From Candidatus Saccharimonadota bacterium (GTDB lineage: Bacteria; Patescibacteriota; Gracilibacteria; Absconditabacterales; Absconditicoccaceae): 32,000 nucleotides of DNA. The position numbers and the translations under genes were made by a program. The stretch covers positions 960,001 through 992,000 of the forward strand of contig OZ246420.1 in NCBI GenBank assembly GCA_965231145.1. The letters are read 5' to 3'. The notes under the pieces are model-generated. The model saw only the letters and a program-made list of their open reading frames with translations, was not told where the DNA came from and made no database searches. Of this stretch, positions 2,817-32,000 are shown piece after piece; the stretch's first letter is position 1, and the number at the start of each line of letters is the position of its first letter.

Positions 2817-2850
2817 AATAAAAAATGAGGCCTCTATGACCTCATTTTTT
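2817..2850. terminator. Bidirectional rho-independent terminator
   Basis: The hairpin AATGAGG-(9 nt)-CCTCATT at 2824-2846 has an A-run on the left and a T-run on the right. It abuts the tsaC stop (2850-2852). Confidence 0.6.
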
Positions 2851-3434
2851 TATGCTCTTAAAATTTCTATAGCTCCGTCTTCGCCTATGCGCACAATTTG
2901 CGACGGCTCCCCTGCGCTATCTGCTATGTCGGACGACAGATACGCATCTGCTCATGAGATAATCTGCTCATCTACCACAGCAAATGATGTTGGCGATGGC
3001 TGTCCGCTCAGATTTGCTGACGTCGATACAATCGGCTTTCCATATGCAACAAGCATCTCATGACATCGCTTTGCTCATACATTGTTTTCTCTTTCAGTCA
3101 CAATGCGCACCGCGAGTGTTCCATCGCTATAATATACATTGTCAGCGAGTCACTGTACGCCTGACAAGACGAGCGTTACTGGCTTTGGGGCTGCAGCAAT
3201 ATATGATTTCTGTTCATCAGTTAAAGCGACTCCATATGCTGCGAGCATCTCTTCTGAAGCAAATAATACTACCATACTTTTTTCTTTCGGGCGCTGCTTC
3301 AATGCATAGACTTTTTCTACTGCATCAAAATTTCACGCATCACATCCGATGCCTCGGATAGTATCCGTCGGATACACTATCGTTCATCAGTCAGTAAGCA
3401 CCTGTAACAATCACTCTGTATCAGTTTTCAGCAT
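2850..3434 (-). CDS. tsaC: L-threonylcarbamoyladenylate synthase (TsaC/YrdC family)
   Basis: Found only under table 25: 195 codons from ATG at 3434 to TAA at 2850-2852. Translation: MLKTDTE[G]LLQVLTD[G][G]TIVYPTDTIRGIGCDA[G]NFDAVEKVYALKQRPKEKSMVVLFAS...GKPIVSTSANLSGQPS. These are the YrdC signatures GG.v.yPTDT.yGlGcda, K.R...KP and STSAN.SG. The plus-strand track ORFs 2836-3063 and 2984-3361 are antisense shadows. Confidence 0.85.
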
Positions 3435-3439
3435 GGAAT

Positions 3440-6244
3440 TTATTTAATGATAAGATTGATAATTTTATCTTGGACAAAGATGATTTTTGCGATTTCCTTT
3501 CCTGCAAGAGACGAAGCAAATCTGTCATCACTCTGTATAAGATTCATGATTTCTTCTTGCGATGTTCATGCATTAATTTCCAATGTTCATTTCATCTTAC
3601 CGTTGATCTGTACTGGCAGATTTATGCTATCTGCTGCGATTTTTGAGGCATCATATTGTGGCCATGCAGAGAAATGAATAGTTGATTCGTTGCCGATTTG
3701 TTCCCATATTTTTTGTGTTACTCTTGTAGCAAATGGTGAAAGCAATTGAAGGAACATGCTGAGCTGTTGTTTGGTAATGGTCTTCTTATCGTAGACCTCA
3801 TTAACAAACACCATGAGTTTTGAAACCGCTGTGTTTCATTTTATCTTTTCTATATCCTCACTTACTCACTTGATCGTCTTATGAAGTATCGGCTCAAGAA
3901 CAGTACTTTCTGATGAAGTATCTAAGAATTGAGTAAGGCGTTCTACTCTCTCTAAGAATTTTTTCACTCCCATCATAGAGCTCACATTCCATACTTTCTC
4001 CTGTTCAATTGGTCACATGAACATGACATATGTTCTGAGCGTATCTGATCCGTGCTCCAGCGCAACTTCACTTGGGTTGATGACATTTCCCCAACGCTTT
4101 GACATTTTACGTCCGTCTGGCCCAAGGATAAATCACTGATGGACAAGCTTTTGAAATGGCTCTGCGCATGAAACATATCCCTGATCAAAGAGGAATTTAT
4201 GGATAAAACGAGAGTACAAGAGATGTCCATACGTATGCTCTTTCCCACCAATATAGAAATCTACAGGCAGCGTCTTGTCTGCAAGTTCTTTGCTGATAAG
4301 TTCTTTCTCGTTCTTCGGATCAATGAAACGCAAGAAGTAGAACGAGCTACACATAAATGTATCGAGCGTATCGCACTCGCGGAGATATGTTTTCCCGTCT
4401 TTTGCTGTATAATGTGGAAATGTTGGATGATCTGCGAGCGGAGACTTCCCTGCTGGCTTATAGTCCTTTACATCTAAAGGAAGAAGTACAGGAAGTTCAT
4501 CTTCAGGAATAAGCTGGGGATTTCCTGCTTCATCGTAATAGACCGGTATTGGAGAGCCCCAGTAACGCTGACGAGAAACAGACCAGTCGCGGAGTTTATA
4601 TGTTACCTTCGACCTTCCAACTCACTGCTCTTCCAGATATTCGGTTATTTTTTTCTTCGCTTCAACATTATCCATGCCATCAAACCTATCTGAATTGATA
4701 AGCTTTCCTGTTCATGTATATGCTTTATTTGCGTCTCTATGTCTTCTAAAGAAAACTAAATTAGAGTTGGCGGCTCCTGGTGTCTTTGAAAGGAAGGCGT
4801 CTACCTCCTCTACTGACACCCATACAAGTGCATGTACATCTGCACCCTCAATCTCTCAGGTATTATCCTGAGATTTTAAGCGATAAACAGCGCAATTTTC
4901 ACAACTATATCTATTGATATCTTTATGTGCTACATAATACTCAGCATGTATTTCTCAAGGAATCATCTCGACAAATTCCACATCTGAATATCCTGTTTCT
5001 TCTAATATCTCTCTTGCTCAGGCTGCTACAATATCCTCTCACTCTTCCACTCCTCACATCACAAACGACTTTCGGTCTTGCGTCTTTCGATCAATACACA
5101 ATACATTCTCCATTTTTTCATCGTAAAGCATCGCCAAGACATTGCGTCTTACACTATTTTGCTTCCCTTCTACCGGAGGATTTCACGAAATATAGTGCAT
5201 CGCTATAACGTCTTTCACTGCAAGATCGTGCTTTTTCGCAAAAGCCCAATCTCTTTCGTCGTGCGCAGGCACACACATGACCGCTCCTGTTGCGTAGTCA
5301 GGAAGCACGTAATCTGCAAACCAGACTGGAACTTGTTCATTGGTCAATGGATGTTTTGCGTAGACTCCTGAGAAAAATCCTGATCTTTCTTGTGCGTCTT
5401 GTTGTCTTTCGAGCGCGGTTTTCTTTCCTGTTACCTTGCGATATTCTACAAGCTCTGATTTCTTTTCAGCAGAAAGTAGTGAGTCCATAAGCTCATTTTC
5501 AGGCGCAAGCACGATAGCTGTTACTCCGTAGATCGTATCTGGTCTTGTCGTAAATACAGTTATTGAGGACTGAGCATTGAGAATTGAGAATTGAATTTCA
5601 GCGCCTTCAGACTTACCGATCCAGTATTTCTGCTGTGTCTTCGTTTCTTCCGGCCAATCGACAAGATCTAAGTCGTTGATAAGTCTTTCTGCGTAGTCGG
5701 TAATTTTGATAAACCACTGCATATGTTTTTTCTGTACGACTTCTGTCCCACAACGCTCACACTTTCCATCAACTACCTGGTCGTTTGCAAGTACCGTCTG
5801 GTCTTGTGGACACCAGTTTACAAAAGCTTCTTTACGATACACAAGTCCTGCTTTAAAAAGCTGCTGAAAAATCCACTGCGTCCATTTGTAGTATTCTGGC
5901 GACGAAGTCGCAAATTCGCGGTCCCAGTCGTAGCTCCAGTCCATGAGTCTACACTGTTCAATGAAGCTCGCAATATTTTCTTTTGTTACATCAACTGCAG
6001 GTTTTCCAACTTTCATAGCGTATCCTTCTGTTGGCAATCCAAAAGAGTCCCAACCGATAGGATTGAGCACTGAAAATCCATTCATGCGCTTGTAGCGAGC
6101 GATGATATCATTCGCCGTATATGGTAATGCATGTCCAACATGAAGCCCAGCCCCACTTGGATACGGAAACATCGCAAGCGAATAGAATATTTTATCTTTC
6201 GCTGCTTTTGTCAGATCAACTTTGAAAGGATTGTCTTTGTTCAT
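3440..6244 (-). CDS. leuS: Leucyl-tRNA synthetase with an embedded Nudix-like domain
   Basis: Track pieces 5183-6244, 4133-4354 and 3587-3814 plus the gaps form one frame of 2805 nt, with 14 in-frame TGA and no TAA/TAG by my reading. Motifs: HIGH as [24 protein letters not shown], [G][31 protein letters not shown] as [10 protein letters not shown], and C-terminal VQINGKMK[G]TLEI. TAA at 3440-3442 lies 5 nt before the tsaC ATG. Confidence 0.92.
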
Positions 6245-13810: not shown

Positions 13811-15088
13811 ATGATTATCAAGAGGGAAAGGTATGTAAAAAGGCTGAAAGACGCTATTTACGACCCCAAAGTAAAGTGTATTGTGCTTGATGGACCAAGA
13901 CATGCAGGAAAGACAACACTCCTGAAACACATCTATCACGATGACACAATTGAAGAAAAAAAATACTATTTCGCGTTTGACGATCAGATCAGCACGAAAC
14001 AATTTAAGGATAGTCAGGAGTTTATGTCATTTATGCAAATTAGATTTGGTATAGATTTTTCTGTTCCTAGCCTCCTCTTTCTCAATGAGATCCAGTATAG
14101 TAAAAATATCGGGAGCATCATTCATGATCTTATCAATGTACATAAGATCCGTACAAAAATCGTAGCGACCGGTATCACGCAGTGAGATTATAAGGAGTTT
14201 CTGGGATTACGTGAAAAAGATTTTGCGGTGATAAATATCTATACGCTGGATTTTATGGAGTTTTTAGAGTTTAAATGAATCCACACAGAACACCTGGATC
14301 CTATGAAACTCAGCCGCATTTTATTCGATGAGATACAGCCTCTCCTCTTGGAATTTTTGAAGCGATGAGGGTATCCGAGCGTCGTTGTTGCGAAGACCGA
14401 AGAAGAAAAGAAAGAAGCGTTGAAACATATTATCCAGACGGTGATTGCGAAAGATGTGAACTTTTGGTTTCGTAAAGAAGAGATCCACTACTTTGAAGAT
14501 ATCCTACATATCATCAACGACCAACATGCGCGCATACACAATAAATGGTCAATCAAAAAATCACACGATATCCCCGCAACCATCATCAATAAATATACTC
14601 GTTTTCTCGAAAATCATTTTCTTATCGTCACGCTCTCTCATTTTTTTTCAGACAAAACGAAAGAGGTTTCTCATAAGAAAAAATCGATCATCATGGATAT
14701 GGGCATAAAAAATTATCTCAACAATACTTTTTCAGTATCGGTACACGACCCAAGAATTATGAGTTATGTTGCGCTCCAGGAAATAGAGAAGAATACGAAC
14801 CCATTGCACCATATATTCACCTATAAAAAGATCAATGGTTCGGAGATTGATTTTCTTATCACAGATACTGCCACAAATATCCCGGTAGTGATCGGAGACA
14901 AAAATACCGACAGCGTTCCAAAAGTATTTGCTGGCTTCGAAGAACTCTACGGCAAACATACGCCGGAATACATTAAAACATCTCTTTCGACGAGCAGCGT
15001 CAATTACATTGAAGGGAAGCCCGTGTACATCATGCCGTATTTTCTTATCGGGAAATACTTAGCGATGAAATCAAAAAATGGCTTGTAA
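13811..15088 (+). CDS. AAA_14/DUF4143-family ATPase
   Basis: Track pieces 13811-14185 and 14420-15088 share a frame and are bridged by 3 TGA with no TAA/TAG. Motifs: Walker A LDGPRHAGKTTLL, LFLNEIQ, LDFMEFLEFK[G], EFLKR[G]GYP (family GGyP). The stop is TAA. Confidence 0.8.
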
Positions 15089-22122: not shown

Positions 22123-23670
22123 TTATTTCTCATCTCTTATTTCATCTAATACCTTCTGATAAATACATACCATCGCCCATGTATCTTGTTTACAGTACTC
22201 TAACAGATCCTGAATATGTTTGTTGCATACATCTGTTTCATACCTACCCTGGACGATCCCGGCCAGCAGCTCTGCTGCGATGGCGCCGTGTAGGACTGCG
22301 AGTCCGTCGTATGAGATGTCAGTGAGCACCGGTAAGACTTTTTTGATAGATGATGATCCGTGAAATTTACGATGGAAATATAATTGTTCGCTGAAGATTT
22401 CCATGAGGTCGAAAGTTTTTTCATTGATCTTTGCAAACACTTCTGCATATTGCGGATAGTGTTTCGCCATCTCGTCGTTTCTTGCATTTTCAAATCCCTT
22501 GAACCAGACAACGTACGTTCCTTCACCCCCTTCCAGATCTTGCACAAGCTGCTCCACGATCGTCTCGTTATCCTTCGCGCCCGCACCCACAATCGCCTCT
22601 TTATGCGAGATCGTTCCATCTTCATCCATGCGATGCACAGAGTACTGCACCACGCACTGCTGCCATGGAGATGTTCATTCAAGCAGCGGCACCGGCCATG
22701 CGATCGTTTCATAGTCGTAGAAAAATATCGGAAAATGGATGCTCTCCATTTTTTGTTTGATGCCATCGACATTAACAACTTTCTCTCACTGTTGCCATAG
22801 CGATACGTAATTACTCGCTCTTGTTTCATCGCCGCTCGCCGCGAAAAGCACCGCCCTCTCATCTTCCGTAAAATGATCAATCAGTTGTTTTCCTATCTCA
22901 TACAGATCTTTTTTCTTATTTCTAATCTGCGGGATATACCACATCGTTCCCTTTTCAGCCTCCTTCCCAAAAAACGTTAGATGATCTTCGTTATCGTATG
23001 GATAAAGCTTGGTGAACTCCTCTCTTTCCAGCTTGATTGTCTTCGTCATCGAGTCGATGATATTGAGCATCGCTTCTTCTTTTTTGAGTTCCGCACTCAC
23101 GTCTTCACGAAGCAACAGCTCTTCAGGATTTATCTCTCCGTGTCTGACATACTCTTTATTCATATATACCAAAAATATTTTTCCTGAATATTTTTCTTTC
23201 AATACTCTCCTCACGATAAAATCCTGAAAACTCACATCCGCTTGTAGATCATCTAATAGCTCCGCTGACTTCGTCTTTTTTCTTACGCCGTTTTTTGCTT
23301 TCACCTCCCGGATGTCATACGTTCCTTCTGCATTTTTTACGAGAAAATCACACTTTGCAAAAAGATTATCCAACAGAAATGCTGGTTGATAGATCACATC
23401 CGGAGACTGTGCAATGGCTTCGAGCGTGACATTATGAAATCACTGATACCAGTCAGGATGCTTACGCTGGATCTTATCGACATTCACAATATTTTTTCAT
23501 GCAAAAAGACGACAGACCTGTTCCTCAGCAGCTCTTCCGACCGCCAAACCATCCATCTCTCCATAGAGCTTTTCCATAATTTTCTCATACACGTTTTTAT
23601 CATGCACATGCCACCACGCAACATGTGGTGCTGTGACGAATTCGACGAAGAGGGATTTGGTAAGTTTCAT
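22123..23670 (-). CDS. DUF2779-family protein (PD-(D/E)XK-like nuclease N-domain + RNase H-like/exonuclease-like C-domain)
   Basis: Track pieces 22786-23397 and 22123-22653 plus the gaps form one frame of 1548 nt with 4 TGA. It runs from ATG at 23670 to TAA at 22123-22125. Family hallmarks: HFPIFFYDYETIAWPVPLLE[G]TSPWQQCVVQYSVH and FHGSSSIKKVLPVLT..SYDGL. Confidence 0.8.
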
Positions 23671-23705
23671 AGATAGCGATAGTAATTAATAATAAACTCT
23701 ATTTC

Positions 23706-24584
23706 TTATAATGCTACTACTCTTAATAAAACCTCTTTCCAATTTGATGACATCCTCATATGTGAGATTTGGACATGAGAATGTTTTTTTAATAACACTT
23801 CTAGCTTCTTTATAAAGTTCTTAGGTTTTGAATTAGCATGTTTTAAAAGCACGACAATTACTATAGCGTATGAAAAGAAGGAATCAGCATCCTGAAAAAA
23901 ACTAGTGTAATTATTATTGCTTACTTTTAATTTTCACGTCATTGTTTTGTTCCAAAGCCTATCATGATGAGCACAAATATTTCTCATATGAGCTAAACAT
24001 CGCATTCGATTTTCATAGACGAGAAAGTATAATTGCGACACACTACTAATCTGCATCTGATATTGTGGATTGAGGCATTTGTAAATCGACACAGCCTCAC
24101 CAAATGACGCTATCTGTAGAATAATCCAAATAGGTGGATATGGCGGCGCGTTATAAGTTTTGTAATAATGCCTAACGGTATAATGATCTTTATTTTTTTC
24201 TACGATATCTTTTATTTTTTTCTCTAAACGAGGGAAGTCTTTAAAGAGTTGTGAATTAAGGTGATAAAAAGATCCATCTAATTCTCAGATTTCACGTATT
24301 AATGCGGATTTAAAAGAATTTTCTATGATTTCAAGATACTCTACACACAAAGATCTTAATTTTTTATCAAACTCATAAAGCTCTACGAGGTGATCAAAAG
24401 TAACATCTTTTTGAAAACTATCATCGCTGTTTTGATAAGCTTTTGCATAAATAGAAATACGATAGTATCCCACATTTTTCAAATACCACACTACTTTTTT
24501 AGTCTTGGATATTATCAATCACCTACTATGAAATAGGCTTATTTGCTGGTCAACTGTAAGTATTGGCTTTATATAGTCAGTCAT
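23706..24584 (-). CDS. Abi_2 family (AbiD/AbiF-like) abortive-infection-type protein
   Basis: 293 codons in one frame with 3 TGA, from ATG at 24584 to TAA at 23706-23708. Motifs: LKNVGYYRISIY, LYEFDKKLRSL, and the family signature MRNICAHHDRLWN. Confidence 0.8.
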
Positions 24585-31535: not shown

Positions 31536-32000
31536 TTAGAGAGGACGCAAAATATTGCGTCCGTACAATTCTCGCCATTTCATCGGATTTTCCTGGATAT
31601 ATTTTTTTATACGATCATATTCGATTTCATTTCTAATAATATGGTCGTGGTAACGACCATGCCGGGCGAATGAAATATGATTATTTTTCGCGTATTTCAT
31701 TACACCAATTTTAAACCCACGAATAATTGCTCACAACGATCATGATGCACATTCATATTTATTTTTTTCTCGGTATTGTACGGACGCATTATCATGCGTC
31801 CTTTTTATTTTATTTATTTTTTTATCATTGGACGCAAAATATTGCGTCCCCACATCGCACCTATTTACTATCAATATCCCATGGACGTGATTGGGCATAC
31901 AAATAAATTCATCTATTTCAACATACGGATAATGGGTCGGAATATCCTTTCGACACTTCCAAGCCACGCGACCCAATTCATTCAACCTCATCACCCCATT
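31536..32000 (-). CDS. IS200/IS605-like HUH (Y1) transposase family protein, REP-associated tyrosine transposase (RAYT)-like, COG1943-type; the 5' end is outside the window
   Basis: One frame with 2 TGA: ..NGVMRLNELGRVAWKCRKDIPTHYPYVEIDEFICMPNHVHGILIV...CAS[G]SL[G]AIIRGFKIGVMKYAKNN..FARHGRYHDHIIRNEIEYDRIKKYIQENPMKW. It has the HUH motif (HVH), GSLGAIIRGFK, and YDHIIR...Y(I)..NP. The stop is TAA at 31536-31538. Confidence 0.8.
31543..31562. repeat. REP-like palindrome GGACGCAA-AATA-TTGCGTCC followed by GTACAAT
   Basis: It lies inside the last codons of the RAYT-like CDS, where it is read as GRNILRP. Confidence 0.6.
31782..31801. repeat. REP-like palindrome GGACGCAT-TATC-ATGCGTCC, preceded by GTAC (ATTGTAC) on the plus strand
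   Basis: It lies inside the RAYT-like CDS, where it is read as RTHDNAS. On the minus strand it is followed by GTACAAT, as copy 31543-31562 is on the plus strand. Confidence 0.6.
31830..31849. repeat. REP-like palindrome GGACGCAA-AATA-TTGCGTCC (20 nt identical to 31543-31562)
   Basis: It lies inside the RAYT-like CDS, where it is read as GTQYFAS. Confidence 0.6.

Follow-up and report, generated by a model that had tools for sequence, protein, structure and literature searches.

The window analysed here, a stretch of 32,000 nucleotides from Candidatus Saccharimonadota bacterium (contig OZ246420.1, positions 960,001 to 992,000), carries a leuS gene for leucyl-tRNA synthetase (LeuRS) in which, almost certainly, an active-looking Nudix hydrolase domain is inserted in the CP1 editing domain of a genuine synthetase. 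LeuRS is among the best-studied translation enzymes and is a drug target by way of its CP1 site. The host LeuRS and the guest Nudix domain are both known, and the sequences are public and partly auto-labelled; what is new is a Nudix domain inside the LeuRS editing domain, an arrangement for which neither a paper nor a curated model was found. This arrangement is a widespread and old trait of the ultra-small Patescibacteria and not a one-off, that is, a conserved extra hydrolase resides inside CP1 across a large bacterial radiation.

The Nudix domain in the CP1 editing domain of LeuRS

Read with TGA as glycine, the window protein scores 900.9 bits with the NCBIfam model TIGR00396 (leuS_bact; cut-off 548.4 bits) and is a member of that family. 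Its Pfam matches are tRNA-synt_1, tRNA-synt_1_2, the PF13603 editing domain, Anticodon_1 and the Nudix family PF00293. The match to PF13603 is split into two stretches, the profile being broken at position 143 of 185 and the rest of it being matched in the second stretch. The features of the gene are as follows (residue numbers are those of the window protein; HMM, hidden Markov model).

3440..6244, minus strand: leuS, leucyl-tRNA synthetase, 934 sense codons plus TAA, with 14 in-frame TGA codons read as glycine
6131..6142, minus strand: HIGH motif of the class I catalytic site, HVGH, residues 35-38, from the orthologue alignment
5195..5626, minus strand: CP1 editing domain, N-terminal three quarters, residues 207-350 (PF13603 profile positions 2-143 of 185)
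5534-5551, minus strand: T-rich motif of CP1 editing, TTRPDT, at residue 232
5249-5263, minus strand: HDxRD motif of CP1 editing, HDERD, at residue 328
4739..5194, minus strand: inserted module, residues 351-502, in place of a 10-residue CP1 loop, at the break h345/h349 of the core-LeuRS HMM
4790..5149, minus strand: Nudix hydrolase domain, Pfam envelope residues 366-485 (PF00293, 49.1 bits, E 7e-13)
4988..5056, minus strand: Nudix box, residues 397-419
4910..4927, minus strand: subfamily signature HKDINR (H-K-x2-N-R), residues 440-445, in the hairpin after the Nudix helix, from the orthologue comparison
4598..4738, minus strand: CP1 C-terminal remainder and return to the catalytic core, residues 503-549, starting YTGTGKLINS, from the core-HMM mapping
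4583-4597, minus strand: KLRDW motif, directly after the CP1 remainder
4097..4108, minus strand: KMSKS-type motif, KMSK, residues 713-716, from the orthologue alignment
3557..3886, minus strand: anticodon-binding domain, residues 787-896 (PF08264, E 1.7e-16)

Judged by its intact HVGH, KMSK, TTRPDT and HDERD motifs, the window LeuRS appears functional both as a synthetase and in its editing site. The core-LeuRS HMM, which was built from 21 insert-free relatives, aligns to residues 9-350 and 503-933 and places the insert of ~150 residues in a loop within CP1, near its C-terminal end and ~20 residues past HDxRD. The loop that is replaced corresponds to residues 364-373 in Thermus thermophilus and to residues 382-391 of the Escherichia coli chain (5omw numbering), and the insert is flanked by what corresponds to T. 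thermophilus up to 363 and from 374 and to the E. coli chain up to 381 and from 392. The spacing from HDxRD to KLRDW is 217 residues in the window gene versus 65-77 in insert-free relatives.

Several lines of evidence identify the insert as a Nudix domain: (i) PF00293 scores 49.1 bits on the whole protein and 53.5 bits on the insert alone, against a cut-off of 21.1 bits; (ii) the Nudix box fits GX5EX7REUXEEXGU at every fixed position, with I and Y at the U positions; and (iii) an HMM of the synthetase-associated subfamily described below, for which only 20 standard-code orthologous inserts were used and the window sequence was left out, scores 143 bits with the window protein (E 6e-45). This score, the HKDINR signature and the insertion at h345/h349, the site referred to below as site B, make the window insert a member of that subfamily. 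Within the H-K-x2-N-R signature K and N are invariant and H and R at least 90% conserved in the 20 orthologues; over 124 domains from all contexts K is present in 97% and N in 87%.

The fold was modelled for an orthologue, P0105, which is ~47% identical overall to the window protein. With the 20 orthologous inserts as alignment, the AlphaFold2 model of the P0105 insert has a mean predicted local distance difference test score (pLDDT) of 95.4 and a predicted template-modelling score (pTM) of 0.88; for full-length P0105 the values are 89.1 and 0.79, with the Nudix blocks at 88-94. Foldseek matched the P0105 insert to Nudix structures only, with a probability of 1.00 to many of them. The best match was E. 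coli RppH (E 2.5e-8; template-modelling score, TM, 0.68 for 4s2w and 0.65-0.69 for RppH) and the next 2azw (TM 0.72), followed by the hydrolases of diadenosine tetraphosphate (Ap4A) 4mpo, 4ijx and 3i7u and by MutT1, NudB, NudI and ADP-ribose pyrophosphatases, all at 15-23% identity.

Between the window and standard-code orthologues the Nudix domain is ~31% identical and the LeuRS core 48%. Among 82 LeuRS-embedded copies the box residues E16 and E20 are present in all 82, E19 in 80, E7 in 75 and R15 in 72. This pattern indicates that the catalytic residues have been under long-term selection and were kept despite the divergence of the domain, and the near-invariant E16, E19 and E20 point to a metal-dependent pyrophosphohydrolase activity of the insert. 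A non-catalytic module, attached to the editing domain for structural, regulatory or ligand-sensing purposes only, would account for the loss of E7 and R15 in some lineages (P0002, L018, P0138 and the copies in prolyl-tRNA synthetase described below), but the retention of E16, E19 and E20 in 80-82 of the 82 copies and the perfect box in the window form the pattern of an active site, and we consider such a module very improbable.

The reading of TGA as glycine, the code of Absconditabacteria/Gracilibacteria-type Patescibacteria, is borne out by 32 standard-code orthologues, in which glycine aligns with the TGA codons at residues 397, 704 and 744 in 32/32, 31/32 and 31/32 sequences, respectively, and is the majority residue at residues 402, 430 and 511. 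The closest database relatives show W at the glycine positions of the Nudix box, these entries having been translated with TGA as tryptophan, and other copies read G there; at residue 793, G and a TGA-encoded W alternate within the clade. No tRNA-Gly(UCA), no other tRNA and no match to any Rfam family was found within the window. The TGA codon at residue 803 (3836-3838) stands apart from the other informative TGA codons, which fall on glycine: all relatives, including close ones with genetic code 25, have F or Y at this position (K-[FY]-NTA[VI]S). Either F has truly changed to G here, or the codon reflects an error in sequencing or context-dependent decoding.

Under the standard code the 14 in-frame TGA codons would be expected of an artefact, either an assembly chimera or a pseudogene broken by stop codons. 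This explanation is effectively refuted: TGA sits where orthologues have an invariant or nearly invariant glycine, the insert is recoded like the remainder of the gene, and the same insert is found at the same position in dozens of orthologues from independent assemblies. Because 7 of the 14 in-frame TGA codons lie within or at the insert and its GC content (0.397) is close to that of the remaining gene (0.416), we conclude that the insert is native to this code-25 genome and that there is no mis-join. An intein or another self-splicing mobile element was rejected for the window, as the Pfam matches include no Hint or splicing domain; around 4500-5400 only short flanking repeats at chance level and no inverted repeats were found.

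A sequence-only reading of this DNA had proposed a Nudix domain embedded in LeuRS, with a perfect box at 4988-5056 and with key glycines encoded by TGA, so that the domain would be invisible under the standard code. The present data uphold this: HMM and Pfam place the domain inside CP1 of a genuine leuS, the translation with TGA as glycine scores above the cut-offs of PF00293 and of the LeuRS model TIGR00396, the box has the coordinates and all fixed positions that were given, three of its codons are TGA (5054-5056, 5039-5041 and 5018-5020; residues 397, 402 and 409), and the insert forms a discrete alpha/beta/alpha Nudix fold in the model of the orthologue P0105. The limits that had been proposed, 4712-5185, are those of two TGA codons that bracket the insert, and they are replaced here by the HMM-mapped borders 4739-5194. 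More generally, guest domains of this kind are overlooked or wrongly translated when genes are called with an unsuitable genetic code.

Curated models of functionally defined Nudix families were tried as candidates for the identity of the insert. RppH (PRK00714 equivalogs) was rejected at 26-30 bits for the window versus cut-offs of 116-259; weak matches to the RppH models of NCBIfam occur in 20/20 orthologues, the best with E 4.7e-9, and the insert, though no member of the family, may act in the manner of RppH. The MutT 8-oxo-dGTPase (TIGR00586/PRK10776) was rejected at 19.4 bits versus 97.9, with matches in 5/20 orthologues, and so were the ADP-ribose pyrophosphatases (TIGR00052, PRK10729 and NudE), for which NudE reached 25 bits versus 169 and TIGR00052 matched weakly in 8/20 orthologues. 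With the NudB and YtkD models the window insert likewise falls far below the cut-offs. Sequence and profile matches of the insert in the PDB are weak and driven by the box only; the top profile match, itself weak, is to lupin Ap4A hydrolase 1f3y (E 3.6e-8 over the box region). Since no NCBIfam equivalog comes near its cut-off and weak matches are most consistent for the RppH models, the insert represents a Nudix subfamily of its own, which within the superfamily is closest to the RppH/ApnA-hydrolase region.

Distribution, insertion sites and other guest domains

A search with the insert yielded two fragments that carry it at the identical position. When one genome was scanned for each GTDB species, the insert turned up in 18 loci, with a recognisable box in 18/18 and a complete one in 17/18; by their database records, from which all taxon labels used here are taken, these loci are from Saccharibacteria, Taylorbacteria, Parcubacteria and the 'Patescibacteria group', and a few are metagenome-assembled genomes labelled otherwise. 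In a LeuRS sample consisting of the window protein and its 120 best full-length relatives (n=121), 86 proteins have at least one copy of the subfamily, 16 having two and 2 having three. Among 1.84 billion cluster representatives (50% identity), at least 153 matched the subfamily profile at E<=1e-30, and 475 did so at E<=1e-10; LeuRS sequence is present on one or both sides in 115 of the best 148 matches.

These observations bear on the earlier suggestion that no LeuRS with a Nudix module had been described. As regards publications it stands: no paper on a Nudix-LeuRS fusion was found in the literature on LeuRS or aminoacyl-tRNA synthetases with Nudix, Patescibacteria or the candidate phyla radiation (CPR), nor was a curated NCBIfam model for LeuRS plus Nudix found. 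The architecture is not peculiar to this genome, however; it is common in Patescibacteria and already present in public databases, where MCE9628660.1 (P0142), MDD4271436.1, MFA6131881.1 and MDP3954111.1 go by the names 'leucine--tRNA ligase' or 'class I tRNA ligase family protein' and where IMG names some proteins 'leucyl-tRNA synthetase/8-oxo-dGTP pyrophosphatase MutT (NUDIX family)'.

The Nudix copies in LeuRS occupy four loops, given here in positions of the core profile.

Site A, ~190-220: 7 Nudix copies
Site B, ~349, the site used in the window and the commonest: 67 Nudix copies
Site C, ~420: 25 Nudix copies
Site D, ~464: 9 Nudix copies

One further guest insert lies at a fifth position, ~554. 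The nearest neighbour of a site-B copy is another site-B copy in 65/67 cases and that of a site-C copy another site-C copy in 22/25, and the copy in the window is nearest to the site-B copies of the code-25 relatives P0036, P0033, P0039 and P0032. Recent hopping of the domain between sites was rejected, as it is the insertion site, not the lineage of the host, that determines which copies group together. The four LeuRS insertions are thus old and separately fixed, with later losses. Among P0149, P0150 and P0155, some LeuRS proteins have three copies, a tandem pair at site A being combined with one copy at site B; one fragment consists almost wholly of tandem Nudix copies.

The LeuRS loops are not reserved for Nudix domains. 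Guest inserts of at least 60 residues number 149 in the 121 LeuRS proteins, 108 of them Nudix, and the proteins reach up to 1559 residues. Among the other guests (P0029-P0148) are alpha/beta (Ser) hydrolases, a HAD phosphatase, an AAA_33/zeta-toxin-like kinase, an S-adenosylmethionine (SAM) methyltransferase, DUF559 (Vsr-like) and PD-(D/E)XK nucleases and small 'H.DLD' inserts resembling nucleotidyltransferase. DUF559 inserts at site B (P0059, P0075, P0079, P0083, P0097 and P0099) are flanked by Pro/Gly-rich strings such as PLPSPLPKGEG and GEGQGEG. This suggests that the strings are translated palindromic repeat DNA and that mobile endonuclease cassettes landed in-frame in the very loop that holds the Nudix domain in the window.

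The genome GCA_030429145.1 is syntenic with the window (PPDK-PK-hyp-hyp-LeuRS-Sua5-Sua5-GH3-DUF3127), with ~72% identity in the aligned LeuRS core. Its LeuRS (L081:4001-8566, JAUIDC010000001.1; 1521 residues) has two alpha/beta hydrolases at site A, its Nudix domain at site C and not at site B, and another insert at site D. Because the guest set differs in this syntenic genome, insert content turns over between fairly close relatives. In the window leuS is flanked by genes for a GH3-family adenylate-forming enzyme (1063-2592), a DUF3127 protein (673-1014) and Sua5/YrdC, threonylcarbamoyl-AMP synthase (2850-3434), and these neighbours are kept in GCA_030429145.1.

Links to other synthetases and the function of the domain

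The subfamily also occurs outside LeuRS. In the prolyl-tRNA synthetase (ProRS) P0227, which matches tRNA-synt_2b, HGTP_anticodon and ProRS-C_1, a subfamily Nudix domain lies between the anticodon-binding and C-terminal domains, and a ProRS with this arrangement lies at L094:2762-4693. In this ProRS lineage, of which one relative (P0298) is labelled Candidatus Pacearchaeota (DPANN archaea), E7 and R15 of the box are often replaced and E16, E19 and E20 are kept. In addition, ~19 of the best profile matches look free-standing, at 160-200 residues, and the neighbourhoods of 11 of them were examined.

P0160: 1 nucleotide upstream of a LeuRS gene that also has an embedded copy
P0229 (L087): 2 nucleotides upstream of an insert-free LeuRS gene
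P0235 (L089): between argS and an isoleucyl-tRNA synthetase (IleRS) gene with a His_Phos_1 insert
P0263: 49 nucleotides upstream of a tRNA_SAD (ThrRS/AlaX-type) gene
P0206 (L094): two genes upstream of the Nudix-bearing ProRS gene
Other six copies: next to Fpg/SpoU; a second Nudix; PRK; RNase Y/HU; MarR; HAD/GH77

Thus 5/11 free-standing copies lie at most two genes from a synthetase gene, which has a binomial tail of ~0.003 with n=11 neighbourhoods and an assumed background of 10% that is itself an estimate. No stand-alone Nudix copy beside an insert-free LeuRS was found in loci L019-L080, including four CPR loci. The IleRS-type gene in L089 (4094-6498; tRNA-synt_1, Anticodon_1 and DUF5915) contains the inserted His_Phos_1 domain and has as neighbours argS, the free-standing subfamily Nudix gene, a second Nudix gene and a dUTPase gene. 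A domain that is fused to its partner in certain genomes and merely adjacent to it in others is a classical sign of a functional link, and we take it here as evidence for such a link to synthetases. By its context the subfamily is tied to several synthetases of both classes and not to LeuRS alone.

Combining the conservation, structure and context data, we suggest that the insert is an active, synthetase-tethered pyrophosphohydrolase that probably clears Ap4A-type by-products, a reading that we hold to be about evenly balanced between right and wrong. Aminoacyl-tRNA synthetases are a main source of Ap4A and other dinucleoside polyphosphates (ApnN), and Nudix enzymes including RppH hydrolyse these compounds (PMC10148737, PMC7705103). 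In this scheme synthetase and Nudix domain would be two independent active sites on one polypeptide: (i) LeuRS would make Leu-AMP, and transfer of the adenylate to ATP or other nucleotides, as in other synthetases, would give Ap4A/ApnN, (ii) the tethered RppH/Ap4A-hydrolase-like site would cleave these nucleoside-polyphosphate by-products or related pyrophosphate-linked species, and (iii) this cleavage would return them to mononucleotides where they arise. A tethered by-product hydrolase is suggested because the linked synthetases have ATP, aminoacyl-adenylate and tRNA in common and Nudix enzymes split ApnN; the tie of the subfamily to several aminoacyl-tRNA synthetases lends indirect support to the idea of Ap4A or adenylate clean-up that the sequence-only reading had offered. 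The other role named there, a moonlighting sanitiser in a reduced genome, may apply instead. If the domain acts on Ap4A-type compounds or on tRNA, this would be the first synthetase carrying its own by-product or alarmone hydrolase, and it would offer an experimental handle on dinucleoside polyphosphate control in minimal genomes.

Several observations weigh against a tethered by-product hydrolase. No curated Nudix family is matched, as all NCBIfam equivalogs lie far below their cut-offs, and the structural neighbours are only 15-23% identical, with MutT1, NudB, NudI and ADP-ribose pyrophosphatases scoring similarly. LeuRS loops host unrelated guests in relatives, so that LeuRS may simply tolerate insertions. 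Six of the 11 free-standing copies have no adjoining synthetase gene, and one of these lies beside Fpg, a hint of a MutT-like role. Box residues E7 and R15 are missing from a few lineages, the ProRS copies among them, and the structure models derive from a ~47%-identical orthologue.

Some of the same observations would be expected if the domain were a housekeeping sanitiser (MutT-, NudB- or NTP-pyrophosphatase-like) unrelated to aminoacylation, which has hitch-hiked in CP1 and neighbouring permissive loops of an essential and constitutively expressed host gene, fusion to which would secure its expression in a tiny genome. The many unrelated guests in the same LeuRS loops and the different guest set of the syntenic relative with ~72% core identity fit this explanation, as do the free-standing copy 4 nucleotides after fpg, a context that fits the GO system, the COG-based names in IMG, which are MutT or YjhB, and a fold that matches MutT1, NudB and NudI about as well as RppH. 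However, one subfamily has been fixed independently at four LeuRS sites, in tandem, and also in ProRS, and its free-standing copies are enriched beside synthetase genes (5/11), a partner preference that is not expected of a generic sanitiser; moreover, the MutT equivalog reaches 19 bits versus 97.9. We regard hitch-hiking as rather unlikely. Even if it were correct, the 149 guests in 121 LeuRS proteins show minimal genomes packing functions into essential genes.

Alternatively, the domain could act on RNA or on the ends of the tRNA that the synthetase holds, removing a 5'-triphosphate, an Np4 cap or a pyrophosphate-type lesion of the acceptor end, so that charging would be limited to tRNA with correct ends. 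In favour of this, RppH leads the structural matches and is also the weak sequence match seen most consistently; the domain is located in CP1, the part of LeuRS that deals with the acceptor end; and tRNA is the substrate common to the associations with LeuRS, ProRS, ArgRS, IleRS and ThrRS-type proteins. Yet the similarity to RppH is low (15-18% identity and ~28-35 bits versus 116-259), mature tRNA 5' ends are normally monophosphorylated and base-paired, and the four LeuRS loops together with the distant position in ProRS argue against a fixed geometry toward tRNA. We consider a tRNA-end enzyme improbable.

Beyond the window, the by-product reading can be widened to a dedicated family of synthetase-associated Nudix domains that has repeatedly been wired into synthetases as a third catalytic site, where it would coordinate aminoacylation with the destruction of Ap4A/Np4N alarmones or caps, or with the repair or maturation of tRNA ends. 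The idea covers LeuRS proteins with as many as three copies, spread over four loops, as well as the single copy in ProRS and the genes that are operon partners of leuS, proS, argS/ileS and a thrS-like gene. We propose this tentatively, as an idea whose prospects fall short of even, and the same caution applies to its proposed span, which would include Patescibacteria and a few ProRS genes with one relative labelled as a DPANN archaeon. If it is correct, ultra-small symbionts would have a level of quality control in translation that has so far gone unrecognised.

Neighbouring genes and comparison with known systems

Elsewhere in the window, a gene for a DUF2779 protein adjoins one for an Abi_2 (abortive-infection-like) protein (22123-24584), and an AAA_14/DUF4143 ATPase is encoded at 13811-15088; in a stretch that otherwise holds housekeeping genes, these are candidates for defence or mobile-element functions. 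The open reading frame at 31536-31991, whose product starts MRLNELGRVAWKCRKDIPTHYPYVEIDEFICMPNHVHGIL, presumably resembles IS200/RAYT-type Y1 transposases.

The host resembles bacterial LeuRS of solved structure (T. thermophilus 2bte/1h3n and E. coli 4aq7) in its core, its HIGH and KMSK motifs, its CP1 motifs and its anticodon-binding domain, and the model of the orthologue P0105, apart from its Nudix domain, superposes on T. thermophilus and E. coli LeuRS, with a target TM of 0.83 for 4aq7; however, none of the solved LeuRS structures has a domain at the insertion loop of the window protein. For the guest, E. coli RppH/NudH, an RNA pyrophosphohydrolase that hydrolyses ApnA and Np4 caps, has the Nudix fold and the perfect box in common with the insert. 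At 15-18% identity and about 28-35 bits versus 116-259, the insert is no RppH orthologue, and it has its own H-K-x2-N-R signature and is embedded in a synthetase, whereas RppH is free-standing. The asymmetric Ap4A hydrolases (lupin 1f3y, human NUDT2 4ijx, Chlamydia CT771 4mpo and Aquifex 3i7u) give structural matches with TM 0.61-0.66 and act on a class of substrates made by aminoacyl-tRNA synthetases, but the similarity of the insert to them rests mainly on the Nudix box.

Two known fusions are comparable in principle. NCBIfam NF040702, which is among the partial matches of the window protein, describes an IleRS with an N-acetyltransferase (GNAT) domain and is likewise a class I synthetase with an unrelated extra enzyme domain; in the window both the guest (Nudix) and the host (the CP1 loop of LeuRS) differ. 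In NadM-Nudix, an NMN adenylyltransferase/ADP-ribose pyrophosphatase whose PRK05379 models are matched weakly by some members of the subfamily, a Nudix domain is also joined to an adenylyl-transfer enzyme. NadM-Nudix, however, is an end-to-end fusion in NAD metabolism, whereas the arrangement in the window is an insertion inside a domain of a translation enzyme.

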